Below, piece after piece: positions 10,053 to 50,609 of a DNA stretch of 64,000 nt. Under the pieces are notes generated by a model. The model was not told where the DNA came from, did no database searches, and worked only from the letters and a program-made list of their open reading frames with translations. The DNA comes from Apostichopus japonicus (taxonomy: Eukaryota): assembly GCF_037975245.1 (NCBI RefSeq), contig NC_092564.1:11487891-11551890 (forward strand). The letters are read 5' to 3'. A program made the translations under genes and the position numbers. Position 1 is the stretch's first letter, and each line of letters begins with the position of its first letter.

Positions 10053-10960
10053 GTACTACTGTTTCCTTATCACAGTCTACTTGATGTCAAGACATGAATT
10101 GCACCCATTTTGTGCTCATCAATGCAATAAAAGTATACAATAATGTGCTGTTGCTACTAGCAACATCTGTTTTTGAGGACCATGATAAGGCAATAAACAA
10201 GCTTGTACTTTCCTTCCAGGTTAATGTATGACACGATACAAATCAATTAATGCAAGTAGTAAAGCCGGAGCTCAGAAGTAAAATTTGAAAATCGCTTAAT
10301 ATATTAGAGTAACTTTTGCCCATTTTTTGTCCAGCCTGAGTTTGCTGAAATCTTTACACAAAAAAATCAAGAGACTGTTACTGAAGTTATTTACAAATTG
10401 ATCCAAGTAAGGTATCCTAGTGAAGTAGTTGATCAGAGAGTAATTTATGAGTACATGGGTGGTGACTTCAGACAGCTTTGCATATGAATTACACAATTGG
10501 CATGCCAAAGGCATATCCATAGTTTTCAACTTCTTTTACTTTTTCTTCAAAATACAGTATGTATTTGAAACTTGACTGGTCATGCCAATGAACTGTTTGT
10601 CAGTTTCTTATCCCCAGTCAATGCTAAAAGCTCTGCTTAGAGTACATGTAGTTGTTGATGATGGTTTTATGTTAATTAGAGACATTATGTTAATTAGAGA
10701 CAGCCAACTGTAATGGTTCTTGGGCAGGCAATGGAAACAAACTTGACAGTCACGTTGACAGCTTGTCATCAACGCTCTGTCGACAGATCGAATGTTTTAA
10801 TATTACTCTGTATATTGTAGAGAAGATATAATGAAAACACTTCCAACCTGTGGCAATAAATAATGATTACCAATGGCTTCTGTTTTGACAATACTAGTTA
10901 GTACCGTTGCAGAGTTTGCCGCTGAACTGTTGACAAGAAACAATTTTTTAATATTATTAG

Positions 10961-11103
10961 AGACAACATCTCCAGTCTCACCCACCCCTGAGGTCCCAGT
11001 GACAACCCCGACAGAGGAGAAAGAGAGTGTCCAAGAGAGAGCTGCACGGTTAAGGAAGAAAATGGAAGAGGTTCATGCAAAGAAAGAAGCCCAAAAGAAA
11101 GAA
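10961..11103 (+). CDS. UBXN4: UBXN4 orthologue exon 6
   Basis: Acceptor ttttttaatattattag| (alternative in-frame acceptor at 10912/10913). Donor GAA|GTATGT. Encodes ETTSPVSPTPEVPVTTPTEEKESVQERAARLRKKMEEVHAKKEAQKKE, matching the human charged coiled-coil start LEERREEKRKEEEQREIKKE. Phase 1 in, phase 0 out. Confidence 0.6.
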
Positions 11104-11639
11104 GTATGTTTTGTAGATCGTTTGTGAGAAAGTTTGTTTTGTTGGATGGTAACTCTCCCCTCACTCTTAACTCCCTTCCCCTTGCCTCACCTGCAATCAT
11201 TGACTATAGAGTGCATTTTTCATCCATGTAGTGTCCAAATTTCACTAGAAAAGGAGCATCTTGCATTGGAATCCTCAATGCTGGATTAGCTGATAGGCTG
11301 GGAGGTAAGTGCCTACGTAGTACTGTATCCCAAAGATCAAGTGGCCCCCAAGGTCAAGGGGATCACTTGGACCCAGTTTTACACTCTATGATGCCCCACA
11401 TTGAGTTGCATTGCGAGTCAAATCATTGAATCTCACAGTGTCCCCTGAACAAATTAACAACCTCATTTGAAATATTTTCTGGATCACAGAATTTAGTCGT
11501 GTCAGATGATCTGAATTTAAATCATTCAACATCAATTTTGTTTTCATTTTTTGCAGCAGATAGTTATTTGGAAACAATTGACAATCCCTTCGTGGATAAT
11601 TTACGTTTGGCTTTATACTGTTTGATACTTAATTAACAG

Positions 11640-11932
11640 ACCTTAAAGCAGAAGGAGCTTGAGAGGCGAAAGGTGGGGCAATCCATGCAGAAAGCCCAAC
11701 AGCAGAGGGCCGAGGATGAATTGAGACAGAATGCGGTAGAGAAGAGGAGGGAGAAGATGGAAGACAAAATAGCAAGACAGAGAGTTCGAGAGCAGATCGC
11801 AAGAGATCGAGCTGAGAAGGATGCCAAGTTTGCCACTGCCAGGAATGAGGAACAGAAACGTAAAACAGCAACGCAGGAAGCAAATGTTGAGCAGCAACGG
11901 GCAGATGATATAGCGAGGGCAGCAGCCAACCG
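11640..11932 (+). CDS. UBXN4: UBXN4 orthologue exon 7 (K/R/E-rich coiled coil)
   Basis: Acceptor aattaacag|, donor CG|GTGAGC. TLKQKELERRKV...AEDELRQNAVEKRREKMEDKIARQRVREQIARDRAEKDAKFATARNEEQKRK parallels human EERNREKAEDRAARERIKQQIALDRAERAARFAKTKEE. Phase 0 in, phase 2 out. Confidence 0.85.
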
Positions 11933-12571
11933 GTGAGCACTTTATCAGGTCGCTCTGATGTGGGTTATCTCCAGTAACAGTCAGGGAGAAATGGTTTAGT
12001 CTGGGCCTCTGGGGATTGCTTTTTTCATTCAGTAGGGGAAGAATTAGATGGTGGACTACTTAGTTGTCTACACATCCCTCCCCCCACCCCCCATATTTTC
12101 AACCTCACACAGAAATTCTAGAGAAGTTATTATCAGAAACATGTATTTTAACCTAAATATAGGCTAAACATGCCTCAGAATGCACCACTTGATGTAAAAA
12201 CTTCTACTTTTATCTCAGGAAGACACCAGACCCCTCTACTTAAAGTTGGCTTCAGTGATGGGAGGGTCACACACCCCTCTCCTTTATAAAATCCTTCATT
12301 TGCCTCTGACCTTTCCATAAAGGTTTATGCCCTTTATATATAAGTCAGTATGGGATAATTTAGAATTTACCCCCTCCCCCCCTCACCTTTGAAATCTTGT
12401 GCATGCCACTGCTTTAATTTGAAAGATACTACATTGCACCAATTGGCATCAAATTGTTTCTGTCAAATAAAATCTTTTAACAAACCTTTCAGTTTTGTTT
12501 ACTGAAATTACCAATCAAAATACAACTAGGGAAATGAATTTGTCTCTATTGGATCTTGATTATCTTTGCAG

Positions 12572-12674
12572 AGAGACGGCCAGGCTTCAGTTTCGCCTCC
12601 CTGATGGAAGCAAGATTCTCCATCAGTTCCCATCTTCAGCAACACTAGGAGAAGCTCGTCAATATGTCGCCGAG
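12572..12674 (+). CDS. UBXN4: UBXN4 orthologue exon 8 (start of UBX domain)
   Basis: Acceptor tatctttgcag|, donor GAG|GTGAGA. RETARLQFRLPDGSKILHQFPSSATLGEARQYVAE matches human RSTVARIQFRLPDGSSFTNQFPSDAPLEEARQFAAQ. Confidence 0.9.
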
Positions 12675-13070
12675 GTGAGAATATTAACTTGCTGCAAAAG
12701 TGCATTTCTTGAGAAATTTTTAAAATTTGCAAAAGGCCATTTCTGATGAATGACTTATAAGAAAATTGTTATCATTTAGTAGCTTTGGCAACAGCTAACA
12801 TTCCATTTTTATTGTGGAGAGGCTTTGTGGTATATCCATTCACTTTCCTCCCTGTGTAGTCTTAAGTCTTGAATTTGCATTTTTACACCAGTTTTGGTGA
12901 AGGAAAAGTACTCACTTACTGTCTGCACAGAAATATAAATGCATAAGTGAAGTTAATGAATCAGGTAGGAACAGAAAATGCAGTTACTTGTAACTTGTGC
13001 AATACGACCTTCCGGTTTGGAAAGTCACCATCAGGCTGTATCAAAGATTCTTTTTTTTTTTTACGTTCAG

Positions 13071-13202
13071 CAAGTTGGCAGTGTCCTTCAAGACTTCAGC
13101 ATGTCTACGGCTTTTCCAAGACGTCAGTTTGGCACGAGTGACATGGACACCTCGTTGCTGGACTTGCAGCTTGCCCCATCTGCTGCAGTTATCATTTTAC
13201 CA
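13071..13202 (+). CDS. UBXN4: UBXN4 orthologue exon 9 (UBX domain, continued)
   Basis: Acceptor (t)12acgttcag|, donor CCA|GTAAGT. QVGSVLQDFSMSTAFPRRQFGTSDMDTSLLDLQLAPSAAVIILP matches human TVGNTYGNFSLATMFPRREFTKEDYKKKLLDLELAPSASVVLLPA. Confidence 0.9.
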
Positions 13203-13829
13203 GTAAGTCCAGAAAAAGTTTAACTGCTTTCTAGAAGTGAGTTGATTTCTAGGAGAAATTTGTAAAAGACAGGCAAACTGATGGATCAACTTGCGGGTTT
13301 GTTAACTACCCCAGATTGCCTTGAAGCATTTGTTAAAAACTTTGCCCTTACACTGGCTGTTTACTTATGTCTTTATAACCTGATAGGGTGCAGAACATAA
13401 TAATTTTCTGTACAAGACAGCTGTACCCCCTTAAGTCCAACAGGTTAACAGTGCGTTACTAAAGGCTTTTAAGATTCGTGCATTCAACATAATAATATAT
13501 TTATTTGTCAGGAATGCTCCTATAAGGATGACGAGCATGAATATAGTGCAGGATGCTGGGTCCTACATTTTCTAAAGTTGTTAATTTAAGGCATTTGAAC
13601 AAAAAGGGCACATTGATGGATAAACCCTCTGGTGTTCACAGGATCATTTCTCCCAGACAAAGTTATTGTACCAATCTGTAGCTAGAGCTTTGTGCTCATT
13701 TGTGATGCTAATTTCCAACTTAAATGTTTGCTTGAGGGTGACTTTCTATATTGTATCTCCTCGGGAAGTAATGTCAGAAATGAATTAATGGCTTGCGGTA
13801 ACAATGTCTATATCGTTCTGTTTTAACAG

Positions 13830-14044
13830 GGGTCGCAGAGATCAAGCGCATCGACAGCTGTGGCAAGTGGAGGCGGATTAATAGCCCTGCTTCTTGCTCC
13901 CATCATTTATCTTTGGAACTTTTTATATACGTTTATTTTTGGAACACCGACAGAACACCCCGCCTCTGGTGACGTAACTTCATCCAGTCCACAAGAGCCT
14001 CCGCAGGCAGATCACTACAACACCATGGGTGCCAGACCCAAAAG
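13830..14044 (+). CDS. UBXN4: UBXN4 orthologue exon 10 (hydrophobic membrane-insertion hairpin)
   Basis: Acceptor ttttaacag|, donor AG|GTGAGT. ...GGGLIALLLAPIIYLWNFLYTFIFGTPTEHP... corresponds to human GDIWTLLGTVLYPFLAIWRLISNFLFSNPPP. Phase 0 in, phase 2 out. Confidence 0.8.
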
Positions 14045-14961
14045 GTGAGTACAAGAGCAAAAATGTACAGTATTGATATGATATGCATGTCATATTGATA
14101 TGGTTTAATACTCTTTTACTTAAGCATGCTCCTTGGAAAAGATAAGGTTTAAAAAAAATGTAATAAATTGAGACTACCTGAGCACCAGAGAGGTCATCTC
14201 TAAGAATGTGAAGAAAGAAATGTTGGCATGCCTCAGCTACAACATTTTCCTTTGGCAGGGCAGCAATCACTAGTATTTTGAAATCATTCAAGAAGAAATA
14301 AACAGCTGTGTACTACCATGCAAACAACAAGTTAGGACAGGATGCCAAAAGTATTACGGTAGATAGTTTGACAAAAGTAGAGCAAACCTTGTTAAGTTCA
14401 GGACATTAGACATATTTATAGAGTATGATATATATATATATATTCATGGAGTAAGAAAGACAATTGGGTCTTCAAAGGCCGGTCACTTTGCGAGATCATT
14501 TGTCAATTTTTTTAGCAATATGTGCACTTGGCCTGTCCCATAAAGTTGTCTAGTATAGGCAACATATCAATTTTAGGGGGCTCGGGGGAGCGGTAGCGTC
14601 CTCCAGTCAGGCTGTGTAGGACATATTCTTTTGTGCTCTCCAGTTACACACATGAGACAGCGCTGGTCTGTAGCAATAATGTCTGTTGCTTGTTGTTGAA
14701 ATCAGTCTCTGCTGCTGTGGGGTATATTGTAGCTACAGCAGATTATCTTTTTGCAGCAGGGCTCATGGGATATATACAGTCAGGTGTCAAAATATATGTT
14801 AGCATGTGTTTGCTGCATACTACAATATATTGTTAATCTTATTGTTAACAGTTCTTAAGTTATCGTGATAGGAACCTGACTTAACAGAAAATGTTTTCTA
14901 TGGTTGTCATGTTTTGTTTGTTGATTTTTTTCTTTCTTCTTTCTTCTCTCATCTCATGAAG

Positions 14962-15599: not shown

Positions 15600-16065
15600 T
15601 AGCTGCTATACATCATTGCATTTATGTCACAACTTGCAAGTTTTGTGTAGCACTTTTGGTACGCTGTACCAGATGCTATGTTCTATGCTATACTAGATAA
15701 ATTATTCATTTAGTATAGCATCAACAAAAATTGCATTTATGTTGCAACTTGCCAGTTTTGCGTAGCACTTTTGATACGCTGAACCAGATGCTATGTGCCA
15801 TGCTATACCAGATAAATTATTCATCTAGTATAGCATCAACACAACTGGCATTTATATTGCATTTTTGCCAGTTTTGTGTAGCATTTTGGTAAGCTTTACT
15901 AGATGCTATGTACTATGGTATGCTATACCAGATAAATTATTCATCTAGTTTAGCATCAATGCAACTCGCAATTATGTCGCAATTTGCCTGTTTTGTGTAG
16001 CACTTTGGTAGGCTATACCAGATGCTATGATGTATGCTACATGAGCTATGCCAGATGAAACATTT
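15600..16065. repeat. Minisatellite, ~115-bp unit x ~4
   Basis: Unit tgcatttatgtcacaacttgcaagttttgtgtagcacttttggtacgctgtaccagatgctatgttctatgctatactagataaattattcatttagtatagcatcaac repeated with ~85-90% identity. Lies ~500 bp downstream of the UBXN4 stop, probably in the 3' UTR or flank. Confidence 0.8.
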
Positions 16066-16752: not shown

Positions 16753-17162
16753 GTATTTGATCCTCAGTTGTATTTGATCCTCAGTTGTATAAAGAATGAC
16801 AGAGAGAAAGACAGACAAACTAATGAGGTGTTATCTAAACTAATTATGTATTTGATCCTCAGTTGTATAAAGAATGACAGAGAGAAAGACAGACAAACTA
16901 ATGAGGTGTTATCTAAACTAATTATGTATTTGATCCTCAGTTGTATAAAGAATGACAGAGAGAAAGACAGACAAACTAATGAGGTGTTATCTAAACTAAT
17001 TATGTATTTGATCCTCAGTTGTATAAAGAATGACAGAGAGAAAGACAGACAAACTAATGAGGTGTTATCTAAACTAATTATGTATTTGATCCTCAGTTGT
17101 ATAAAGAATGACAGAGAGAAAGACAGACAAACTAATGAGGTGTTATCTAAACTAATTAATTA
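16753..17162. repeat. Minisatellite, 78-bp unit x ~5 (near-perfect)
   Basis: Unit tgtatttgatcctcagttgtataaagaatgacagagagaaagacagacaaactaatgaggtgttatctaaactaattatg. It generates the spurious 146-aa periodic ORF 16723-17163. Confidence 0.9.
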
Positions 17163-18001: not shown

Positions 18002-18265
18002 TTATGATGATTCATATATGAACAACAAGTTACTAGCCAAACCACTTCCGGGTTCTAAATCTGCGGTATCAAGGTTAACTGTGTACTCCACGGCATCCGT
18101 TTGGCTTGTCTCGTCTTTCTTGGACATAACTGTTTGACAGAAAGCCCCCCATTTTGTGGAGACTGGCTCAGACGTATCCCAAGTTTGGTCTATCATGTCA
18201 CCTCCTGGGGCCGAGCTAGGATCAATCGCCCAACTGCAAATATTGTACACGTTGTTGGCCCATTC
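18002..18265 (-). CDS. GH81 gene terminal coding exon (stop TAA at 18002-18004, minus strand)
   Basis: Acceptor ttgattctttttttcag|. EWANNVYNICSWAIDPSSAPGGDMIDQTWD...NLLFIYESS* matches the GH81 FVxEEW C-terminal block. The 10 exons form an unbroken phase chain totalling 2302 nt. Confidence 0.8.
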   Translation of the reverse strand, partial: EWANNVYNICSWAIDPSSAPGGDMIDQTWDTSEPVSTKWGAFCQTVMSKKDETSQTDAVEYTVNLDTADLEPGSGLASNLLFIYESS

Positions 18266-18490: not shown

Positions 18491-18808
18491 CTGGTCCACA
18501 TACCAATGGGAGATGGACATAATTGGTATCAATTGTATTCCTACGAGACACGCGTGACGCTGTGGGAACTGGTCGGGATCACACTCCCAGTTTATCATGT
18601 AGTAAAATATGCCATCTTCCTGTAGTTGTCCCAGAACGCCGTACTTCTTTATAGGCTCTGGGAAGATGTGGCGATTATTTTCTCGGACGGTCCAGTAGTA
18701 ACGAACTGCCCGCAGCTCAGTTGCCAACATAAGACGGCCAAACGATTCCATAACGGGATCGTTCATAGCACTTCCAAGAGCACCGAGGGCGTGGTAACAG
18801 TTGATGGC
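18491..18808 (-). CDS. GH81 gene exon (C-terminal domain, continued)
   Basis: Acceptor ttattttcctag|, donor CAG|GTAAGA. 106 codons AINCYHALGALGSAMNDPVMESFGRLML...NRHIFPEPIKKYGVLG...ACLVGIQLIPIMSISHWYVDQ matches the GH81 (D)YNFaYA..LWG and HGIQ(M/L)LP blocks. Confidence 0.85.
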
Positions 18809-19537: not shown

Positions 19538-19695
19538 CTCACTAGCTGATTCTTCTTGTCTAGCGCCTCCACCGATCCCAGTAGCCCATGATGATCCAAA
19601 ATACCAATCCTTCTGCCTTACAGTTGGGAAATACACATCTTTCTTACTTGGATTCCCGATATCTCTGGCGAGTGACGTAATGCGAATTCTGTTAT
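19538..19695 (-). CDS. GH81 gene exon with RDxxNP...FP...HSWAxG...ESxSE catalytic motifs
   Basis: Acceptor ctcgcacag|, donor GAG|GTACGA. (D)NRIRITSLARDIGNPSKKDVYFPTVRQKDWYFGSSWATGIGGGARQEESASE matches GH81 LVRDxANP..DPYFP..RxFDWyhGHSWAxG..DGKDQESsSE, which includes the catalytic glutamates. The acceptor was chosen among three in-frame AGs by spacing between DPxW and LVRD. Confidence 0.8.
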
Positions 19696-20326: not shown

Positions 20327-20502
20327 CTTCTTTGTTAGCCCATTCTGGATAATATTTAGCGTAGTAGGCAATAGCGTAGATCCAATATCCAATATGAAAG
20401 TGGTGATCCGCATAGGAAACAAAGCCAAAGTTTGTCCAAGGAAAGATAGGTTCGTTTAATCCAGCACTACGCATGTACATACCTCCCCACACAGTATCAT
20501 AC
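20327..20502 (-). CDS. GH81 gene exon with the YxDHHFHxGY signature
   Basis: Acceptor ttttccttactag|, donor G|GTGAGT. (R)YDTVWGGMYMRSAGLNEPIFPWTNFGFVSYADHHFHIGYWIYAIAYYAKYYPEWANKE contains the GH81 hallmark YNDHHFHYGY(F/W)IYAAA...DPxW. Phase 2 in, phase 1 out. Confidence 0.9.
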
Positions 20503-20756: not shown

Positions 20757-20992
20757 CTGAACACGTTTTCGACTGGTAGACCACTCGTTATGCCAAGCCA
20801 AAGATCTAGGCATGTTCGCAAGGATTCATCCAGTTCCACATAATGATTCGTTCCAAAGGCTCTGGATATGGTTGCTAGACGGGTTACCATAGAGATACTT
20901 TTACCCGCCCAATAACTTTGAGCTCCTGATTTGGTACAATCCTCCACCAGCGTCTCAAATGCAGCGTCTTTTTCAATTGACGCGAGAATGTG
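20757..20992 (-). CDS. GH81 gene exon (start of C-terminal (alpha/alpha)6 catalytic region)
   Basis: Acceptor ttttctacccaacag|, donor AG|GTATGA. HILASIEKDAAFETLVEDCTKSGAQSYWAGKSISMVTRLATISRAFG...LPVENVF(R). Splicing to the next exon restores the GH81 FRYDxxWGG motif; read-through instead hits a stop. Confidence 0.8.
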
Positions 20993-21745: not shown

Positions 21746-21904
21746 ATTCAAACGGTCAGGAGTACTCTTGATTCTGTTCACAGCATCCATATCTGGTTCA
21801 AGGCTTGATATCGGGAGCTCTTCTTCCAGGATCCATCGGTCTCCCACGTGACCTTTAAACCCCCATGGGGTATCTATGAGGTTACTTGCCTCTAGTTGCT
21901 CATC
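21746..21904 (-). CDS. GH81 gene exon (linker region)
   Basis: Acceptor tcctctttctttcag|, donor AAT|GTAAGT. DEQLEASNLIDTPWGFKGHVGDRWILEEELPISSLEPDMDAVNRIKSTPDRLN. Phase 0 in and out. Confidence 0.7.
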
Positions 21905-22317: not shown

Positions 22318-22514
22318 GTGATGAGGTAGTGCTACCATTAGTAAATCATGATTGGGATTCTGTCCGAAGAAATCTTCTCCTCGTTTATTCCAATCATAGC
22401 TAATTCGTCCGACGTCTCCTTCCACACAAAAACGTGTCTTTGGTTTATAGGAGTAGACCCCTGCGTATTTATCTAATCTTTCCGCCATCGTGTAGTCCCC
22501 TTTAGCACTGGTAC
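22318..22514 (-). CDS. GH81 gene exon carrying the ALPHH motif
   Basis: Acceptor cgttgctag|, donor CAC|GTGAGT. ...TSAKGDYTMAERLDKYAGVYSYKPKTRFCVEGDVGRISYDWNKRGEDFFGQNPNHDLLMVALPHH ends in the GH81-conserved LM(Y/V)ALPHH motif. Phase 1 in, phase 0 out. Confidence 0.8.
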
Positions 22515-22602: not shown

Positions 22603-22680
<78 letters not shown>

Positions 22681-22801
22681 TTATATATATATATATTTAT
22701 ATATTTATATATTTATATATTTATATATTTATATATTTATATATTTATATATTTATATATTTATATATTTATATATTTATATATTTATATATTTATATAT
22801 A
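22603..22801. repeat. (TA)n then (TATATATTTA)n compound microsatellite
   Basis: Direct read. Lies in the GH81 intron between the exons at 22514 and 23165. Confidence 0.95.
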
Positions 22802-23164: not shown

Positions 23165-23390
23165 CTGCATAGACAAGTTGCATATGTCCAGTAAACATGC
23201 CACCGGCTTGTGGTTCAAATTCAAACAACCCGTCATCATTGATTTCAACTACCATGTCCTTGTCGAAATAAGCCACAAATTTCCGAGTATTGGTTAAACC
23301 AAGTCCTCCTGGTTCGTTTAGTTCAAATATGAAAGATTTTGCTGTAATGGAAATATCTTGGGTGGTCTCTGGAACCCACGGACATTTTAT
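23165..23390 (-). CDS. GH81 gene exon (N-terminal beta-sandwich region)
   Basis: Acceptor (t)16acacgttag|, donor G|GTAAAT. IKCPWVPETTQDISITAKSFIFELNEPGGLGLTNTRKFVAYFDKDMVVEINDDGLFEFEPQAGGMFTGHMQLVYA. Phase 0 in, phase 1 out. It joins the next exon to create the codon GGT. Confidence 0.65.
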
Positions 23391-24394: not shown

Positions 24395-24650
24395 TGTTGT
24401 GGTTTATTATACCCTGTCTTATATCATGTTTTACTTTTACTGCTGTTGTTATTACTTTGAGGTTTTCTTAAGTTTGGTAATTTTATATTCCAGATTTTGG
24501 TTCTTTTGTACAGTGCTCTTGAGCATGTTTTACTTTTACTGCTGTTGTTATTACTTTGAGGTTTTCTTAAGTTGGGTAATTTTATATTCCAGGTTTTGGT
24601 TCTTTTGTACAGTGCTCTTGAGCATGTTTTATTTTATGATAACAGCACTA
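24395..24650. repeat. Tandem repeat, ~107-bp unit x ~2.4
   Basis: gcatgttttacttttactgctgttgttattactttgaggttttcttaagtt(t/g)ggtaattttatattccag(a/g)ttttggttcttttgtacagtgctcttga duplicated. Explains the spurious ORF 24309-24653. Confidence 0.85.
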
Positions 24651-25017: not shown

Positions 25018-25227
25018 CTCTTTTGGTTGACGCCTCCAGTTCCACGGCTCTGACTTTATTATAAACTGACCATGTACGTTGGCTGCAAAATAAGTGACCT
25101 CACTAGTGGGTGTTAACGTAAAGACGACATTCATCCCGCCATCGATCAATTGGCAAACGTCCGGGGTGCAGGGGATCCATTCATGATCAGCCGTCCAACC
25201 ATCAGATGCGACTAACATGTAATCAAT
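25018..25227 (-). CDS. GH81 gene exon (N-terminal domain)
   Basis: Acceptor ttttacttcacctctag|, donor GAG|GTACGC. 70 codons IDYMLVASDGWTADHEWIPCTPDVCQLIDGGMNVVFTLTPTSEVTYFAANVHGQFIIKSEPWNWRRQPKE. Phase 0 in and out. Confidence 0.55.
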
Positions 25228-25750: not shown

Positions 25751-26108
25751 TTCGTCCAGAAACTGTGCAGCATTGCTCAGTGAGAGTGTGACATCAACCA
25801 TGGCATCTGATAAGTCATTTCCATGACACTGAGCATTTGTTATGGTAGCGGTACCGTAGAACCACACGGGCATTTTACCAGCGTACATGGTAACCATCGA
25901 GGGAGTGCTGACACAGGTTGTAAGGGCTGGGTTTGGTATGTACCAGTAGGTGTAATCGCTCTGAGGGATCACTAACATATTCACGATGTTAATGGCGAAC
26001 GCCATCGTGCCATTTGCATCCGGTATGTTGATGGTAACAGTCATACCGTCACTGGCCAAAGTGCATACAGTTTCATCACACATCTTCATTTGACTAGAGG
26101 AATCCCAC
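25751..26108 (-). CDS. GH81 endo-1,3-beta-glucanase gene, most upstream exon recognised (N-terminal domain; 5' exon(s) not found)
   Basis: Minus-strand acceptor aacctgcag| and donor GAA|GTATGT. 119-codon open frame (WDSSSQMKMCDETVCTLASDG...NAAQFLDE). Phase 2 in, phase 0 out, consistent with the downstream chain. Assignment to GH81 rests on frame continuity, not on a recognised motif. Confidence 0.55.
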
Positions 26109-26590
26109 CTGCAGGTTGAGAACGAAACACGAATGGGTTCAATGCTTCTACTGATATAATATTAAACAATTACAATGTAAGAATGGGTTCAATGCCTCAA
26201 TGCTTCTACTGGTATAATCTTAAACAATTACAATATACGAATGGGTTCAATGCTTCAATGCTCAATGCTTCTACTGGTATAATATTTAACAATTACAATA
26301 TACGAATGGGTTCAATGCTTCAATGCTCAATGCTGCAATTATTCTACTGGTATAATCTTAAACAATTACAATGTACGAATGGGTTCAATGCTTCAATGCT
26401 CAATGCTTCAATGCTTCTACTGGTATAATATTAAACAATTACAATATACGAATGGGTTCAATGCTTCAATGCATCAATGCTTCTACTGGTATAATATTAA
26501 ACAATTACTATGTACGAATGGGTTTAATGCTTCAATGCTCAATGCTTCAATGCTTCTACTGATATAATATTAAACAATTACAATGTACGA
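26105..26590. repeat. Tandem array, ~60-70-bp unit x ~7 (aatgggttcaatgcttcaatgcttctactggtataatattaaacaattacaatatacg)
   Basis: Direct read. Begins immediately upstream (minus-strand sense) of the acceptor of the most 5' GH81 exon found. Confidence 0.9.
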
Positions 26591-27214
26591 GGTGCAACGA
26601 ATAGCAAAGAAGATGATGAATTATAAGGAGACCAAAAAAATTCAGAGTAATTCAGATTAGTGGCAAAACAGAGAATGGAATTGTACGCAGTCGAAAAATG
26701 AAAAAAATATGAGGAGTGTTGAATGATACTTTAGAAACAGGGCTTGCGGTAATTTTTGTTGAACATTTTCGAAATATTAAAAGCATTGCGATGTCGGCAC
26801 AATCGTGAATATGTAGGTGTTCCTAGCTCCAAAGTTCATAAAAGGATTGAATAAGCCATTTTTTTGGGCGAGTATTGTTTATAATGATGATCAATTTTTA
26901 AACCCGATTGCTTCATTTAATACGAAATCTTACTCTGATTCGACGGCAGCAGCATATTGTACGTCTGTGAGCATAGGAATCCGTTTAGTTGCGTGCACCA
27001 CAAGGGATAAGACACCCTCGTCGCTATTACACGACACTTCAGTATAGGCAGTGCCATCGTCAGCCTCTGTCGACATGAAGTAAACATATATTTAGAAATC
27101 AAATGAATTTTATAGTTTGTGTTATACATGAGAGTAACGTTGAGGAGATTAACCCAGAGCAGTCACATTTGTAAATAAAGAAAAAGAAGGAGAAGAAGGA
27201 AATGGAAATATAGT

Positions 27215-27225
<11 letters not shown>

Positions 27226-27306
<81 letters not shown>
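27226..27306. repeat. (TA)40 microsatellite
   Basis: Direct read. Adjacent to the tRNA-like sequence. Confidence 0.95.
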
Positions 27307-28680: not shown

Positions 28681-29000
28681 CTAAAAATTACATTGTGACA
28701 AACGTTTTAACTTTGCAAGATAACATTCTATTCTGCGCATGGACCATGATATGTACGTACTTGTTTCTTCCTCTGGACACTCATAGCTCACGTTTTCACC
28801 GTTGATGGCGGTGAGACAATATGGTGTAATGATAGGGTTTGCATTGTTGAAGATATGGGTCAGCATCGCGCTACCTCTGACCAATGGTAGCTCTAAACTG
28901 CCTTGATCGTTTTGATACATGAAGTCAGCATACATAATATCGAAATCAACCATTTCAGCATCGCCAGAATCTTGAATCCCGACTCGAATACCAGTCAATC
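28681..29000 (-). CDS. Unassigned coding exon, possibly terminal (stop 28681-28683); internal candidate donors at 28792 and 28761
   Basis: Acceptor attcactttcag|. Phase 1 in is compatible with the 31313 donor, giving a Gly codon. (G)LTGIRVGIQDSGDAEMVDFDIMYADFMYQNDQGSLELPLVRGSAMLTHIFNNANPIITPYCLTAINGENVSYECPEEETSTYISWSMRRIECYLAKLKRLSQCNF*. No recognisable domain. Confidence 0.4.
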
Positions 29001-31312
29001 CTGAAAGTGAATTTGATTTTGAAAATCAAATCAATCAATAATACAATTTAAACCTTGGATCCACCCCCTGTACCGTGTATTACAAGATGACTTGAATACC
29101 CTTCCAACTGTTCCACTCCTTACAGATCCTTGACAATACCAATCGTAACCCGATGGTGTAAAGACATTTGTGGCCCAAGAGGACGATCTAACACCTCTGC
29201 CGCCACTCTTACACCATTACCACCATCACTAAGATACGACTACACCCGTGCCAAATCACAATGGCAGCCGTACGGAAGATGCCCGGGTTAATTCTATTTC
29301 AGTTTTTAATTTGTCAAAAAAATGGCTGTACCCACTTACTGTGGTTCTGAATTATGACAGACGAGCTTTATAGATTTAATGTGCACAACACAGCATCTCA
29401 AGAAGAAAAATTATAGGCCTATTCCGATCTAGATTTTCAAACACTGTTAAATTTGCAAAGTAAACAAATCTAAACATATCTAACACATCCTGTCGACAGC
29501 TTAAATTGTTGTTTGTTTTGTCAAGACTTGAACTTACTTTTTACTCTACAGACAAAGGCTTAATCAAAACATATTTCCTAATTTCGATCTGTTTTCTATT
29601 TATGGAAAACACAGCAACTCGACAAGTTGACTCCAGTTTTTTTTTTAAAGATTGCAATGGCTAGATCAGCTTTACAAATAAAATTTTGACAAGTAATTTG
29701 TCTTTGACTTGTTGTCAAGTTTATATGAAAACTCAACAATTTGACTTCCTGTCAAAAGGCACAAATTTGTTGCAAGTCGTCTACTCTATTAAAAGATCCA
29801 CTTTTGGTTTGTGATGTCGTTTTATTGTATCACAATAATAATAATAATAATAATAATACAATACATCTCACGTGTCCCTTCAGGACCACGGTAATTGTCA
29901 GTGCAATGTAATTTCGTTACAAGGGAAGGAAACTTAACCTGTGTAATGCATACTTATAGTTTGCAGATATGATTGAACTGACTTCCAATCTAGAGATTTG
30001 ACATTGTAATGTCAGACAAAATAAATGAATTTATATAAGACTGCATGGGAATAAACAATGAGTCAGGCCTCCTGGAGATTACGTGATCAAGGAAAAGTGA
30101 TTTGTCATTCTATAGATTGATCACGCTCTCAAACCATGGACTGCATGCAATTAACTCGTGCATGGTGAGTTTAATGGATTATTAATAAGCAATAGAAGTC
30201 AAAGTTGTTTATTTGACTTTGTGTTTGAGTATTGTTTGAGGACGTACATGTTTCCTCACGATGGCCTTTATCTCGTGGTATCATTCCTATACCCGCCGAC
30301 GCACGACAGTTTATTGAATGGTTAATATATGTTTGATTAAAACAATGCGCGTGCCCAAATATAACAATTGATTTTGTTTGACTACTCGTGAAGGTGTTCT
30401 TCCGTTAAGACTGTGTTCACTAGGGCACAACTTCTACAATTTACGAGTTTACAAACTTATGCCATATTTTAAATTTGAAGTATAACTAACCCAATAACCC
30501 CTGAGATTGCAACATTTATGTCACCTCATTGTAAGAAAACAAATATAGTAACTATTAGAGTATATATTTGTGTTATAAACAATAAATTGTCAAGTGATCT
30601 CAAAATTTATCAGGAAAAGTTGATATCTCTTCGCCTTCTTTAGCTTTCTGATATGATGCTACAAAAACCGATTTGATAGATCTCTTGGACTTTGGAAGAT
30701 AATAAATTATGTCTATGAAGATTTTATATTCCATTTTTACAAATTTTGTGCCTATTTCGTACATTATTAGATGAATATCATGACAATAATAAAAATTCAA
30801 GAAATATACGATACACCGGGTCAAATTTTCATTCATAGTGTAACATTCTATTTTTGAGTGACACCTTGTGACACATTGAGTAATGCAATACTATTACGTT
30901 GCAATGTTCACTGCACTACATGTGTTATGTCGCTGTAATGTGTGATGGACTGCATTGTTTTTTCCAATCAACTTTCACTGTATTAATTATAACACATCAG
31001 TGTATGACCGTGGACTACACTGCCATCATGGTGTAATTGTTCTTTTTTTTTTGCATTACTGTGTCTTCACCATGAATGGCTATACCTGAATTCATAATAC
31101 AGTTTTGTCGGTATAGTTTCGTTCATTTTTACACTGTTTGTAAGATTATCTATTTGTACAGATACCTTAAATATCAATATTATAGCACCTTACATGATAA
31201 TGATGAGATTTCTGACTTTCTTTACCAAAAAAAAATGGTTTGACTCAAACACCGAATCTCATTTTCACGTAGAACTGATGAGAAATACACTAATTTTCCT
31301 ATTTTTACATAC

Positions 31313-31507
31313 CAGAGAAAGTTGAGAGTGGAGATCCATCTGGCCCAGAATTTGTCTGCTGCATGCCCCCTCCAATTTCAGTTATTTTATCCCAAGGCAT
31401 ACCGTCCCTTCCAGGTGTCAGCTGATAAAATTCATCGGTTCTCGCGGGATCTGTCCATCTGTCTAAGGTGTAAGACTCATATATTATCCCTCTCTCGTCC
31501 ATGATAG
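31313..31507 (-). CDS. Unassigned coding exon (phase 1-1), same reading-frame chain
   Basis: Acceptor attctacacag|, donor TCTG|GTATGT. (A)IMDERGIIYESYTLDRWTDPARTDEFYQLTPGRDGMPWDKITEIGGGMQQTNSGPDGSPLSTFS. Confidence 0.45.
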
Positions 31508-32456
31508 CTGTGTAGAATATTCAACAAAGAATATATAGTCATTCTTCTTTCTTTCAACGCGCTTGTATTATCATAACACGTTTCCTAAGAAGTTGTGTGT
31601 AACTAAATAGTGTCGATATATAGCTATATTGGACATCATAACACAATTGAAAAAAAATGATAATGTGTACATTGAAATGAGTTTAAGTTGTAGAATTAGT
31701 CCTTTCTAGGAGAAATAAAACCAAACAAATATAATTATCTGATAGATGAAAAGTCTGCAGACTGTAGCCTGATCTTTGCTCTTTATCACTTCACATTTAT
31801 GAGCGTTATTGTCGATGGCTGATGCTATTGTCAATATTGTTGTTCAGTGATGATGCATGGTGATGCTGTCGGGTGAGTTTGTTTATATTTATGGCTTGTG
31901 TTCGCCTGCATATAAGCTATATCATTTAAATACAAGTAATGGCCAGAGAAGCTTTACCAGGGAAAGATACCAACTACTTTCTGGCCTCGCGCTCAATAAC
32001 GTTATGCAACAGTGGTATCATAAGTCTATATAGATTTTCCAACTGGTGGGTGTCAGCAGTGGGATTCTGCACACGTTCACAATTCATTAACAAACTCGTA
32101 CAGTATGCAACATAATTCCTAATCTGTGAGCTAAAGAAAGTTTTAAGGTGAACGTTTGGAAAGGTAGCGGAACATTATCATGTAACCACGAATGATATTC
32201 ATTCATTTATTTGTTTTTTTCACATAAATATTACAATGTGAATGGAAGTCTTCTGAAAAGCCTATGCTGGCTTAACAAAACAGAAGACTCCCATGAAGAA
32301 AAGATAGAAAATAGTGAAAATAATGTTAATAACAATACGTAAACGCTTCAATATGTGAATATGCTGCTATGCGACTATGCAGCTAAATCATAATTAATAA
32401 GACATGATAATTTCTTTAGTAAGACATTTACTAAATGTGATATAACCTACACTTAC

Positions 32457-32675
32457 CCGAATGAGGGAACAACCGTATTGGAGATGGCCCAATGTTAATT
32501 TGGTTTGAAGCAAAGTGTCCTGTCGGCAAGGCAGTCTGTTCTCTAAGATTACCTGTCCTAACTGGAGGACAAACGTCATTGAGGTCCGTAGAGGTTCCAA
32601 ATATACCAGAAACATCTTTCATTGAATAAATCGAGTCTTGTAGTTGTATACACGTAGGTGGCAGTCCGCCCATGT
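32457..32675 (-). CDS. Unassigned coding exon (phase 1-1), probably downstream part of the Kunitz gene
   Basis: Acceptor ttgtttatttcgacag|, donor TCGG|GTAAGT (alternative ACAG|GTAATC at 32553). Open frame (D)MGGLPPTCIQLQDSIYSMKDVSGIFGTSTDLNDVCPPVRTGNLREQTALPTGHFASNQINIGPSPIRLFPHS. Phase-compatible with the 33016 donor upstream and the 31507 acceptor downstream. Confidence 0.45.
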
Positions 32676-33004
32676 CTGTCGAAATAAACAATTAAACTTG
32701 CTTTATACATTTCATATACTTTGATCTGATCTTGTTTCTGTTAGTGTTATGCTATATTCAATTTTGTATTAGTTCAGAAATATCAAACTTTCACGTTGAG
32801 TTACACTATGCACAAAGAGAAAATTAACAAGATATATACAAATGATGACGTATGTGAGTTGTCATCCATAAGCCCTCGTGGGTTTCTCCCACTTTTGTGG
32901 TCGCTTAATCGTCGTAATCATAACTGCTGACTATTATTATTATGATATTATTATTATTATTATTAATATTATCATGGTACTTGAGAAGTATATGAGCAAC
33001 CTCT

Positions 33005-33183
33005 TTAGCTCTCACCTCCACATCTGCTCTCACAATCATCTTCACTCCTGAAATTATTGCCATTTCCTTCACAACCTCCGTATTCGAATACGTCACACTT
33101 CCCGGAGGGTGTATCGAAGTACCATCTGAGCTCTACTGCGTCACAGGGACCGACCTCAGCCGGAAGTGTACATACGTCTTCCA
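33005..33183 (-). CDS. Kunitz/BPTI domain exon (domain 2); ends at TAA 33005 or splices on at alternative phase-1 donor 33016
   Basis: Acceptor ctcgacag|. MEDVCTLPAEVGPCDAVELRWYFDTPSGKCDVFEYGGCEGNGNNFRSEDDCESRCGGES*. Second full Kunitz cysteine pattern. A good donor GGAG|GTGAGA sits 11 nt before the stop and is phase-compatible with the exon at 32675. Confidence 0.75.
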
Positions 33184-34078
33184 CTGTCGAGCAATTCGTT
33201 AAAGTACTTTTAATTGGGTACCATTCTCTGTATGCTATTACAGTGTTATACAGACAATACAACATATCAACCCCTTAGCAACCGTTTCCCCTTTAAAAAA
33301 AACCAATCGTTGCTCTACCTCTTGGTTTTGTTGTTGTTATTTTAATACCGTGCATTTTTACTGATCCCCCCCTCCTAGGGGTCAAACAGGGCACCCATTA
33401 TATTCATATTACAGTGTTGGTACGGGATTTCGTGTGGATGGAAACTAAGGGGAGACGGAAGAGGGGTTGGGCAGGGCCACGGGCCACTGATACAGGGGGC
33501 ATGGGGAAACGAAAAATAAATTCAGACATTCTTCCAAATGTCTTACATTAAATAAACTAAGCTAAACAAATGAAAGCTTATACTATACAAATGTGGTTAA
33601 GATTATGGAAATTATAGCTACCATTGTTTTCATCTAAACACTTCTATCTACAACTTTGGTGTCCGGTCCCTTATAACAATGTTAAACTTCGCGGTGAGTG
33701 ATCCGCCGAACATGTTCCTTATATTGTAATGAAGCATTAACAAGTTAAAAGGGCATTAAGACTATCAGTTTTTTAATAAGTCATTTTGATGAAAATTGGG
33801 ATCTCGGTATTTTTTCAACGGGAACCTGACGTTTCCTTTACAAATAATGGCATCTAAATTGCTCCAAAGATTCATCCTGGACGATGGTAAACAGAATCAT
33901 TGGACATCAGTGTCATTATTCTGGACCTTGGTGTCGGAAATCTTGTTAAGTTCGTCTATTATGTAATGATATGCAAAAGTGTGACATCATCAGAATATAA
34001 GCTCATATTTTCCCCAGAATACATATCATACAGGTCACGTGAGTTTCGTGACCTGTGACTTGTCCCGAGACAACTTAC

Positions 34079-34249
34079 TTTGTCCGTGACAAATCTCTTG
34101 GCATTCTTCTCTGGTCATAAAATTATTTTCGTTTCCTTCACATCCTCCGTAAATGAATTCTACACATTCTTCTCGAAGTGGGTCGTATGCCCATCGGGGC
34201 ATGTAGGCTTCACATGGACCGGATGTTATAGGAAGACGACAGTTACCGC
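34079..34249 (-). CDS. Kunitz/BPTI domain exon (domain 1)
   Basis: Acceptor tttctttgttgacgttag|, donor CAAA|GTAAGT, phase 1-1. (G)[56 protein letters not shown] has canonical Kunitz six-Cys spacing C-x8-C-x15-C-x7-C-x12-C-x3-C plus the YGGC motif. Confidence 0.8.
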
Positions 34250-34324
34250 CTAACGTCAACAAAGAAATGTGGAAACACATACATAAGGCAGGAAAAATGA
34301 AAAATTGTACAAAAAACATACAAC

Positions 34325-34383
34325 AAACATTTATATATTCATATATATGTAACCGTATATATATATGAATATATAAATGTTTG

Positions 34384-34418
<35 letters not shown>

Positions 34419-34461
34419 AATATAAATAAATATATATATATAAATGTATGTAATATAAATA

Positions 34462-34518
<57 letters not shown>

Positions 34519-34520
34519 AA
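34325..34520. repeat. AT-rich compound microsatellite ((TA)n / TATATAAA variants)
   Basis: Direct read. Sits in the intron between the TM exon and the first Kunitz exon. It inflates the listed ORF 34331-34945. Confidence 0.9.
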
Positions 34521-34611
34521 TTAATTTTGCATGTTAACACAAAGTTTTCAATAACACGTGAGAAAGCAAAATATTTGACATTTAAAAAGACGTTAACAGT
34601 AATACACCCAC

Positions 34612-34822
34612 CTATCTCCGGCGAGGATGAAGGGGTTCCCTCAAGAGGTTCCGCGTCTTCAGACGTATCCCTGAATCCATAGTAGCAAACCAAAATAAAA
34701 GCCGTAGCAACAATAAGCACCCCCAGTACGATGAAGAAAGTTGTCCAGCCACTTTTCGACTTTGTTTTACTCTCATAACTTTCGGCTGGAACACTCATTT
34801 CATATTTTTCGTTCTTTTCCAT
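34612..34822 (-). CDS. Kunitz-domain membrane protein, exon 1: cytoplasmic tail plus signal-anchor TM helix
   Basis: First in-frame ATG is at 34822-34820 (minus). MEKNEKYEMSVPAESYESKTKSKSGWTTFFIVLGVLIVATAFILVCYYGFRDTSEDAEPLEGTPSSSPEI. Donor ATAG|GTGGGT, phase 1. A 23-residue hydrophobic stretch follows a charged N-terminal tail. Confidence 0.55.
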
Positions 34823-50378: not shown

Positions 50379-50609
50379 CCTGTATGGATACAGGAACTTT
50401 CTCCATCTTCTTCCAGCTCTCCCTTCTCCTTCCGGTCCAGGCATCGTCACACCAAAGTAAATCACTGTCGCGTATACGCACGCAATGATGAAAACACAGA
50501 ATACAACTATGTATGTTGGTCTATTTCCTCTTTGCCACGCTGGCTTCATCCATATCTCAGCAACCTCTTCGTCTTCCTCCTCTAGATCACCACTACCGAT
50601 GCTCGACAT
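50379..50609 (-). CDS. TM-anchor exon/ORF, family member F3 (acidic N-terminal tail)
   Basis: MSSIGSGDLEEEDEEVAEIWMKPAWQRGNRPTYIVVFCVFIIACVYATVIYFGVTMPGPEGEGRAGRRWRKFLYPYR, then donor AGG|GTGAGT at 50378. TM helix followed by VIYFGVT. Confidence 0.3.

Follow-up and report, generated by a model that had tools for sequence, protein, structure and literature searches.

A 64,000-nucleotide stretch of the Apostichopus japonicus genome (contig NC_092564.1 of assembly GCF_037975245.1, forward-strand positions 11,487,891 to 11,551,890; at its full length called the window here) carries on its minus strand, from 34822 down to 28681, what was originally predicted to be a modular gene: a charged tail and a hydrophobic helix, two Kunitz domains, and then ~215 residues that resembled no domain that could be named. 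What is this last segment, and does the gene end with it? The flagged region covers only the opening third of one modular gene that occupies 34822-18002 (-), and its unrecognised segment is, as judged by sequence comparison and a modelled fold, the first ~215 residues of the ectodomain (amino acids (aa) ~186-1212) of a glycoside hydrolase family 81 (GH81) endo-beta-1,3-glucanase. We consider it likely, with good confidence, that the 17 exons specify a 1212-aa type II membrane protein that joins a Kunitz pair to a GH81 enzyme and that hydrolyses beta-1,3-glucan.

Gene structure and the GH81 ectodomain

The gene reads through 17 exons, all of them bounded by GT-AG, as an open frame of 1212 codons with no internal stop (Table 1). 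Its junctions were placed with an orthologous protein (P0001) as guide, scoring every in-frame GT/GC...AG combination, and the best-scoring boundaries are exactly those of the six exons proposed earlier, with AG acceptors and GT donors where these had been put. Direct reading of the splices bears out that all junctions of these six exons are in phase 1 and that the split codons are of the predicted kinds (Gly, Met, Asp, Ala and Gly for the first five introns, in that order). The placing of the gene's end at ~28761 does not hold: exon 6 stops there at a GT donor, again in phase 1, and the frame runs on through 11 further collinear exons to a stop codon at 18002-18004. (Position 28681 is merely the stop codon that is met on reading through into intron 6.) The extent of the gene is thus corrected from ~6 kb to ~17 kb, and its intron phases in full are 1,1,1,1,1,1,2,0,0,1,0,0,2,1,0,0. 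At the 5' end, an in-frame stop lies upstream of the start codon at 34822, with no earlier ATG between the two. In its GC content (35-45%), introns and microsatellites the region resembles an animal genome, and the best protein matches are to echinoderms.

L001, a contig of 4152 nt without introns (run SRR29838370), supports the continuity of the spliced message: its single 1216-codon open reading frame (ORF) specifies, in order, anchor, Kunitz, Kunitz and GH81. This contig is interpreted as an mRNA of a related species, and it encodes P0001. Its blastn blocks end 0-3 nt from most exon ends of the window (within 9 nt at the overlap of exons 5 and 6). The 33016->32675 junction, about which the original prediction was doubtful, is spanned by two blocks that abut (query 898-964, then 963-1181). 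Judging from this orthologous transcript contig, the donor at 33016 is preferred over read-through to the TAA at 33005.

The full-length relatives found with a rough concatenate of the ORFs of the locus each have Kunitz, GH81-N and GH81-C domains together: P0001 (1216 aa, 70% identical to the concatenate at 99% coverage), Lytechinus variegatus LOC121410825, a protein of Antedon mediterranea and S. purpuratus XP_786827.2. In a first Pfam scan the last three flagged exons gave a weak match to the GH81 N-terminal domain, and minus-strand ORF fragments farther downstream match both GH81 domains, including the DHHFHIGYW signature. In the full model the GH81 C-terminal (alpha/alpha)6 domain (PF17652) is found at aa 850-1133 (E = 6e-48; 164.3 bits against a cut-off of 25.6) and the GH81 N-terminal beta-sandwich (PF03639) at aa 696-783 (E = 1.3e-10; 41.4 bits against a cut-off of 25.6). 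Taken by itself, the 216-residue segment scores 17.4 bits with PF03639, which is under the gathering score of 25.6; when the segment is scanned together with its counterparts in 10 homologues, PF03639 is the only family matched, by 11 of the 11 sequences (best E = 2.5e-5). Matches to PDB sequences are solely to GH81 enzymes (RmLam81A, 4k35, at 5.7e-24; CtLam81A; BhGH81). Residues 337-392, which lie inside the segment, align with RmLam81A 128-187, and RmLam81A 296-619 is matched by the sequence that starts at aa ~769.

The segment, which does have only the four cysteines originally counted in its three exons (residues 186-402), is also where the mature protein starts in all non-echinoderm homologues, with the sequence L-P-x-x-C right after the signal peptide; the GH81 part continues for ~810 residues beyond it. 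It is among the best-conserved parts of the protein, with 0.107 non-synonymous differences per non-synonymous site (pN). (Both pN and its synonymous equivalent, pS, were measured against L001; synonymous sites are saturated, so differences per site are given instead of dN/dS.) The fold was modelled with AlphaFold on the 79%-identical orthologue P0001 (aa 50-1216) and not on the window protein, at a predicted local distance difference test score (pLDDT) of 67.5. Compared with RmLam81A (4k3a/5xc2) by Foldseek, the orthologue's model matches at E ~1e-21 with a target-normalised TM-score of 0.71-0.75 and displays the three-domain GH81 fold.

Several results weigh against this reading of the gene. 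The source of L001 is deeply diverged from the window species, as the saturation of synonymous sites indicates. The P0001 model is of low confidence at Kunitz 1 and at model residues 219-269. A profile of the 216-residue segment alone finds no match among PDB sequences even at E <= 10, and aa 186-335 are placed in GH81 by collinearity, by the weak single-family Pfam match and by the whole-chain fold match. (When an echinoderm profile was compared with a diatom GH81 by hhalign, only the second half of the protein aligned.) The failure of the segment's profile to find a PDB sequence and its sub-threshold Pfam score are also what might be said for the original view, in which a novel C-terminal domain of ~215 residues, encoded by three exons, closes the gene. 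That view is now barely credible. The segment is neither C-terminal, since a phase-1 GT donor ends exon 6 and 11 collinear exons follow, nor unrecognised, since GH81-N is its sole family match in every one of the homologues scanned; it aligns with residues 128-187 of RmLam81A and forms the mature N-terminus of every animal GH81. For annotation, an apparent orphan domain becomes a well-defined enzyme. Division of the locus between two products, a double-Kunitz protein that ends at TAA 33005 by retention of intron 3 and a separate GH81 gene that starts near 32675, would make sense of the fact that read-through of the exon 3 donor meets a stop after three codons (GGES, then stop) and of the Met codon at the start of exon 4. 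It is nevertheless very unlikely: L001 is continuous across 33016->32675, and in five other echinoderm gene models GH81 is joined to a Kunitz domain, an anchor or both. Moreover, a GH81 protein that began at Met185 would be without a signal sequence, though all its homologues are secreted or anchored and cysteine-rich, and the splice sites of this junction (donor GTGAGA, acceptor ...TTTCGACAG) are of good quality and match in phase. Alongside the single full-length product that we favor, a minor isoform that retains intron 3 (ending in GGES and the stop) might conceivably exist.

Predicted signal anchor, Kunitz pair and a plausible history of the cassette exon

Exon 1 contains, as originally described, a 25-residue charged tail, MEKNEKYEMSVPAESYESKTKSKSG, followed by a hydrophobic segment of 23 residues, WTTFFIVLGVLIVATAFILVCYY (aa 26-48; mean Kyte-Doolittle value 2.86), which is flanked by KTKSK on its N side and RDTSEDAEPLE on its C side. 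A comparable internal hydrophobic run, 23-28 residues long and free of charged or strongly polar residues, is present in each of the seven echinoderm sequences compared (best 19-residue mean Kyte-Doolittle value 2.7-2.9; start 24-88 residues from the N-terminus), with a Lys-rich N-flank and an acidic C-flank in most of them. Hemichordate, amphioxus and mollusc GH81 homologues have short N-terminal signal peptides instead. Manual reading finds a long h-region from residue 26 with bulky residues after it (Y-G-F, then R). There is no second hydrophobic segment in the window protein, whose C-terminus is the end of GH81, and the cytoplasmic tail is short and poorly conserved, with no recognisable signalling motif. 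The signal-anchor topology that had been proposed is supported by its recurrence in all seven echinoderm sequences, and the product fits a type II (N-in, C-out) single-pass protein with extracellular Kunitz and GH81 parts. In Diadema antillarum (P0049) the tail is made up in part of three tandem copies of a ~21-residue unit (MATIGENGVGNT.KEASSSI.).

The description of exons 2 and 3 as textbook Kunitz domains is right for the fold and wrong for the type of inhibitor. Two stretches match Pfam PF00014 (E = 1e-40 on the six-exon splice and 1e-39 on the full model), and both have the six cysteines in the canonical spacing C-x8-C-x15-C-x7-C-x12-C-x3-C. Trypsin-type Kunitz inhibitors need a basic P1 residue (Lys or Arg). 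The P1 residues here are Glu84 in domain 1 and Asp142 in domain 2, neither of which is basic, and the orthologues have Gly (sea urchins), His (crinoid) or Glu/Asp (P0001) at this position. Because P1 is acidic and is not conserved across orthologues, inhibition of the trypsin type, or a conserved trypsin-like target, appears unlikely. The domains are constrained all the same (pN 0.21-0.25 vs pS ~0.8). Sequence identities among the Kunitz domains are 47-75% and do not date the duplication. The Kunitz domain of D. antillarum apparently is without the second cysteine.

The original prediction took the run of phase-1 introns as the hallmark of shuffled extracellular modules, and this is borne out for the Kunitz exons only. 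Exons 2 and 3 are each a whole domain with phase-1 flanks, and their copy number varies: at the same phase-1 intron the 1-1 Kunitz cassette exon is absent from Patiria, present once in Lytechinus and Antedon, and present twice in the window. (At the level of the protein, Lytechinus, S. purpuratus, Diadema and Antedon have anchor, one Kunitz domain and GH81; Patiria has anchor and GH81 with no Kunitz domain; the hemichordate, amphioxus and molluscs have signal peptide and GH81.) In Patiria miniata (L002, 2001-12548) the anchor exon splices in phase 1 directly to a GH81 exon, and no Kunitz-like ORF is hidden in the 794-bp intron 1. Exons 4-6, on the other hand, are pieces of a single GH81 beta-sandwich, and the phase-1 introns that follow them have the same position and phase in hemichordate and limpet genes that lack Kunitz domains. 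At the phase-1 frequency of ~0.3 that is typical of animals, six such introns in a row would rarely arise by chance (~0.3^6 = 7e-4), but three of the six are not independent events, because they were inherited with the GH81 domain from a bilaterian ancestor. Since the introns after exons 4-6 are common to hemichordate and limpet, the GH81 gene is old in bilaterians and not recently transferred.

Exact exon maps of the orthologues show that intron phases are conserved across echinoderm classes (1,1,1,1,1,2,0,0,1,0,0,2,1,0,2,0 in Lytechinus; 1,1,1,2,0,0,1,0,0,2,1,0,0 in Patiria, where a single exon corresponds to window exons 4 and 5). In Lytechinus variegatus (L003, 1280-11750) intron 1 is ~10.5 kb long, the only junction that gives the annotated protein uses a GC donor, and there is an extra phase-2 intron inside the equivalent of window exon 16.

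In a plausible history, a signal anchor would have replaced, in the echinoderm stem, the cleavable signal peptide of an ancient secreted bilaterian GH81. The phase-1 intron just before the mature N-terminus would also have received a phase 1-1 Kunitz cassette, later to be duplicated in the window lineage and lost in a sea star. The comparison documents an old and little-noticed bilaterian GH81 lineage with an Ig-like insertion (see below) and an apparent echinoderm-specific change from a secreted to a membrane-tethered enzyme. It also offers a clean natural case of a phase 1-1 Kunitz cassette exon in zero, one or two copies at one intron.

Ig-like insertion, catalytic residues and likely function

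Relative to RmLam81A, the GH81 N-terminal domain contains an insertion of ~235 residues (aa ~402-635, exons 7-9). The insertion consists of two immunoglobulin (Ig)-like repeats with conserved cysteines, which a dedicated model (pLDDT 80.4) renders as two beta-sandwiches. It is conserved in every animal GH81, and the fungal, bacterial and diatom enzymes compared here lack it; there are two such repeats in echinoderms and molluscs, three in the hemichordate and amphioxus, and none in the diatom GH81. An exhaustive profile search of 1.84 billion representatives yielded 73 matches, mostly fragments of animal GH81. Long multi-repeat matches were considered as specific relatives of the insertion and set aside as weak matches to Ig repeat proteins of the HYR/Big type. 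A role of the insertion in binding glucan may be put forward as a hypothesis. In Glandiceps (P0051) and Branchiostoma (P0052), both secreted proteins, the three Ig-like repeats are separated by low-complexity linkers, with a poly-Asp run in the former and a Thr/Pro-rich mucin-like stretch in the latter.

The sequences ADHHFH (with Asp940) and QEESASE (with Glu1015 and Glu1019) align with the GH81 family motifs of RmLam81A (DHHxH and E-x3-E), and in the alignment to PDB 6fop Glu1015 stands opposite the mutated Ala of CtLam81A E515A. Asp940, Glu1015 and Glu1019 are presumably the catalytic carboxylates, in keeping with the title of the 6fop entry. All three positions are at least 90% conserved in a 14-sequence alignment (13 animal sequences and one diatom). 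Non-synonymous differences amount to 0.10-0.25 per site in every folded part of the protein, vs ~0.8 for synonymous differences, and the C-terminal catalytic domain of GH81 is the most conserved part of all (pN = 0.099). Two further points belong on the debit side of the argument. The crinoid Antedon mediterranea (P0003; locus L004) reads SNHHIH, with Asn for the motif Asp, at the site where all other animal GH81 sequences read (A/N/S)DHH(F/Y)H: activity may be reduced or lost in the crinoid lineage, and catalysis is perhaps not essential clade-wide. Literature searches, moreover, found no enzymatic, localisation or tissue data for echinoderm GH81 (and, more generally, no paper on a Kunitz-GH81 protein or on an echinoderm GH81).

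Endo-beta-1,3-glucanase is the sole activity reported for GH81 (PMC9609564), and mollusc GH81 genes are expressed chiefly in hepatopancreas (PMC7560691). The protein would accordingly be pictured on the cell surface, most plausibly that of a digestive epithelium, where it would hydrolyse beta-1,3-glucans (algal laminarin, diatom chrysolaminarin, fungal wall glucan) by the inverting mechanism of the family. The Kunitz pair could serve as a disulfide-rigid and protease-resistant stalk, or could bind a protease of non-trypsin type or some other protein. Laminarin and chrysolaminarin are major marine carbon stores and, if the proposed function is true, a surface-bound laminarinase in grazers and deposit feeders would be relevant to echinoderm nutrition. 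Within a known enzyme family, the protein appears to be a new and uncharacterised variant in domain architecture, and orthologues with the same automatic Pfam architecture are already public as "uncharacterized protein". Nothing here overturns current understanding.

Rival functions give the GH81 part a different emphasis. The protein might serve innate immunity as a receptor that recognises beta-1,3-glucan at the cell surface, in which GH81 binds, and perhaps trims, microbial glucan while the Kunitz domains modulate a serine-protease cascade. No animal GH81 is known to act as an immune receptor. Such a receptor could have a membrane anchor and a short cytoplasmic tail, Kunitz domains are protease-interaction modules, and the loss of the motif Asp in the crinoid hints that binding could outweigh catalysis; there are analogies, too, with arthropod beta-glucan recognition proteins and with the GH81 beta-glucan-binding protein of soybean, which is bifunctional according to a reference listed in PMC9609564. 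The window protein and almost all homologues, however, retain the full catalytic triad, the tail is short and poorly conserved with no recognisable signalling motif, a P1 that is Glu/Asp here, Gly in urchins and His in the crinoid speaks against conservation of a protease target, and the mollusc homologues are expressed in a digestive gland (PMC7560691). A receptor is, on balance, improbable. Little separates it in standing from a composite proposal that we likewise regard as improbable, if anything slightly more so: a surface sensor, not a gut enzyme, in which binding or trimming of beta-1,3-glucan is coupled through the unusual acidic-P1 Kunitz domains to protease control, and/or an insertion that founds a new, animal-restricted family of beta-glucan-binding modules. 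More doubtful still is a catalytically dead, lectin-like pseudo-enzyme that is kept for binding glucan. The crinoid Asn could be a sign of it, and altered function is conceivable given the size of the Ig-like insertion and how strongly the N-terminal domain departs from characterised GH81 enzymes, but Asp940, Glu1015 and Glu1019 are all present in the window (and conserved as noted above), and it is the C-terminal catalytic domain that is best conserved. An active surface glucanase is the reading that we prefer.

Known proteins help to place it. The characterised GH81 enzymes (RmLam81A of Rhizomucor miehei, 4k35/5xc2; CtLam81A of Clostridium thermocellum, 6fop; BhGH81 of Bacillus halodurans, 5t49) share with it both Pfam domains, the motifs and, in the orthologue model, the three-domain fold. 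Identity to them is only ~12-14%, the N-terminal domain is barely recognisable in sequence, and the window protein has the ~235-residue Ig-like insert, an anchor and two Kunitz domains in place of a signal peptide and modules of the carbohydrate-binding module (CBM) type. The secreted animal GH81 proteins (Mizuhopecten yessoensis "Endo-1,3(4)-beta-glucanase 1", and those of Mytilus, Patella, Branchiostoma and Glandiceps) belong to the same subfamily and are 37-43% identical to the window protein. They too have the Ig-like insertion, the L-P-x-x-C mature start and, within the N-terminal domain, phase-1 introns found in the window gene, but they have a cleavable signal peptide and neither anchor nor Kunitz domains; hepatopancreas expression is documented for the molluscs only. 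The predicted echinoderm orthologues (LOC121410825, S. purpuratus LOC581748/XP_786827.2, Diadema antillarum, Antedon mediterranea) have the same domain order, the same intron positions and phases, and 50-57% identity over GH81; they differ in having one Kunitz exon (two in the window and in L001), in P1 (Gly or His) and, for Lytechinus, in one extra intron.

HAI-1 and HAI-2 (SPINT1/2) resemble the window protein in having a single membrane pass and a pair of Kunitz domains outside the cell. They are of type I, with the anchor at the C-terminus, a basic P1 in the inhibitory domain and no enzyme domain. The window protein has its anchor at the N-terminus, as the original prediction stressed in setting it apart from HAIs, and has acidic P1 residues and a mass that is mostly glycoside hydrolase; homology is limited to the Kunitz fold, and the protein does not belong with SPINT. 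The working model for its action, by functional analogy and not homology, is a vertebrate brush-border glycosidase such as sucrase-isomaltase, a type II signal-anchored protein in which a stalk carries a large luminal glycoside hydrolase. The hydrolase there is GH31 and here GH81, substrates differ, and its stalk is O-glycosylated where that of the window protein would be built of Kunitz domains. The soybean glucan-binding protein, cited in PMC9609564, is a GH81 member linked to membranes and to recognition of beta-1,3-glucan; it is a plant protein without Kunitz domains, Ig-like insert or signal-anchor exon.

Coordinates and surroundings in the window

Table 1. Exons of the GH81 gene, with window coordinates, intron phases at their ends and the parts of the protein that they encode
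Feature	Position	Strand	Phases and content
Exon 1	34612..34822	(-)	Start codon 34822-34820; tail aa 1-25; signal anchor aa 26-48 = 34747-34679; acidic Ser/Pro-rich linker; ends in phase 1
Exon 2	34079..34249	(-)	Phase 1-1; Kunitz/BPTI domain 1, aa 74-124, six Cys, P1 = Glu84 at 34211-34209; Pfam PF00014
Exon 3	33016..33183	(-)	Phase 1-1; Kunitz/BPTI domain 2, aa 132-182, six Cys, P1 = Asp142 at 33142-33140; PF00014
Exon 4	32457..32675	(-)	Phase 1-1; start of GH81 ectodomain (GGLPPTC...ALPTGHF...), equivalent to mature start of secreted homologues
Exon 5	31313..31507	(-)	Phase 1-1; GH81 N-terminal beta-sandwich continued; intron position and phase common to hemichordate and limpet genes
Exon 6	28761..29000	(-)	Phase 1-1; GH81 N-terminal domain with LPLVRGSAMLTH motif; matches PF03639 positions 103-145 and RmLam81A residues 128-187
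Exon 7	26934..27066	(-)	Phase 1-2; animal-specific insertion begins, Ig-like repeat 1
Exon 8	25751..26108	(-)	Phase 2-0; completes Ig-like repeat 1 and encodes the first half of repeat 2
Exon 9	25018..25227	(-)	Phase 0-0; second half of Ig-like repeat 2; insertion ends at ~aa 635
Exon 10	23165..23390	(-)	Phase 0-1; GH81 N-terminal domain resumes
Exon 11	22318..22514	(-)	Phase 1-0; GH81 N-terminal domain (YSYKPKTRF...ALPHH); PF03639 positions 198-279 = aa 696-783
Exon 12	21746..21904	(-)	Phase 0-0; end of GH81 N-terminal-domain match and segment toward C-terminal domain
Exon 13	20757..20992	(-)	Phase 0-2; GH81 C-terminal (alpha/alpha)6 domain begins; PF17652 on aa 850-1133
Exon 14	20327..20502	(-)	Phase 2-1; ADHHFHIGYW motif with Asp940 at 20408-20406
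Exon 15	19538..19695	(-)	Phase 1-0; QEESASE motif with Glu1015 (19552-19550) and Glu1019 (19540-19538)
Exon 16	18491..18808	(-)	Phase 0-0; GH81 C-terminal domain
Exon 17	18002..18265	(-)	End of GH81 C-terminal domain; stop codon 18004-18002; ATTAAA at ~17773

Upstream of the GH81 gene, an ATG-initiated ORF at 50379-50609 (-) specifies an acidic tail and a 23-residue hydrophobic segment (TYIVVFCVFIIACVYATVIYFGV) and ends at a phase-0 donor (AGG, then GTGAGT). It looks like the first exon of another gene for a type II membrane protein. It was rejected as an alternative first exon of the GH81 gene (50609-50379), its phase-0 donor being incompatible with exon 2. On the other side, ORF pieces at 10873-14048 (+) jointly match the UBX domain (PF00789, 1.1e-15) and probably constitute a separate UBX-domain gene that is convergent with the GH81 gene and lies ~4 kb past its 3' end.

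Micro- and minisatellites abound in the introns of the gene. There are (TA)n tracts at 34356-34519 and 27217-27306 (introns 1 and 6), a 73/139-bp array at 26138-26590 (intron 7), a 99-bp repeat at 24425-24636 (intron 9) and (ATATATTT)25 at 22603-22800 (intron 10). Two more arrays lie 3' of the gene: one of 115 bp at 15618-16039 and, ~850 bp downstream of the GH81 stop, a perfect tandem array at 16769-17158 with a 78-bp unit in 5.0 copies. Because the copies of the latter are 100% identical, a very recent expansion is suggested; the array also gives rise to a spurious 146-aa ORF on the plus strand.

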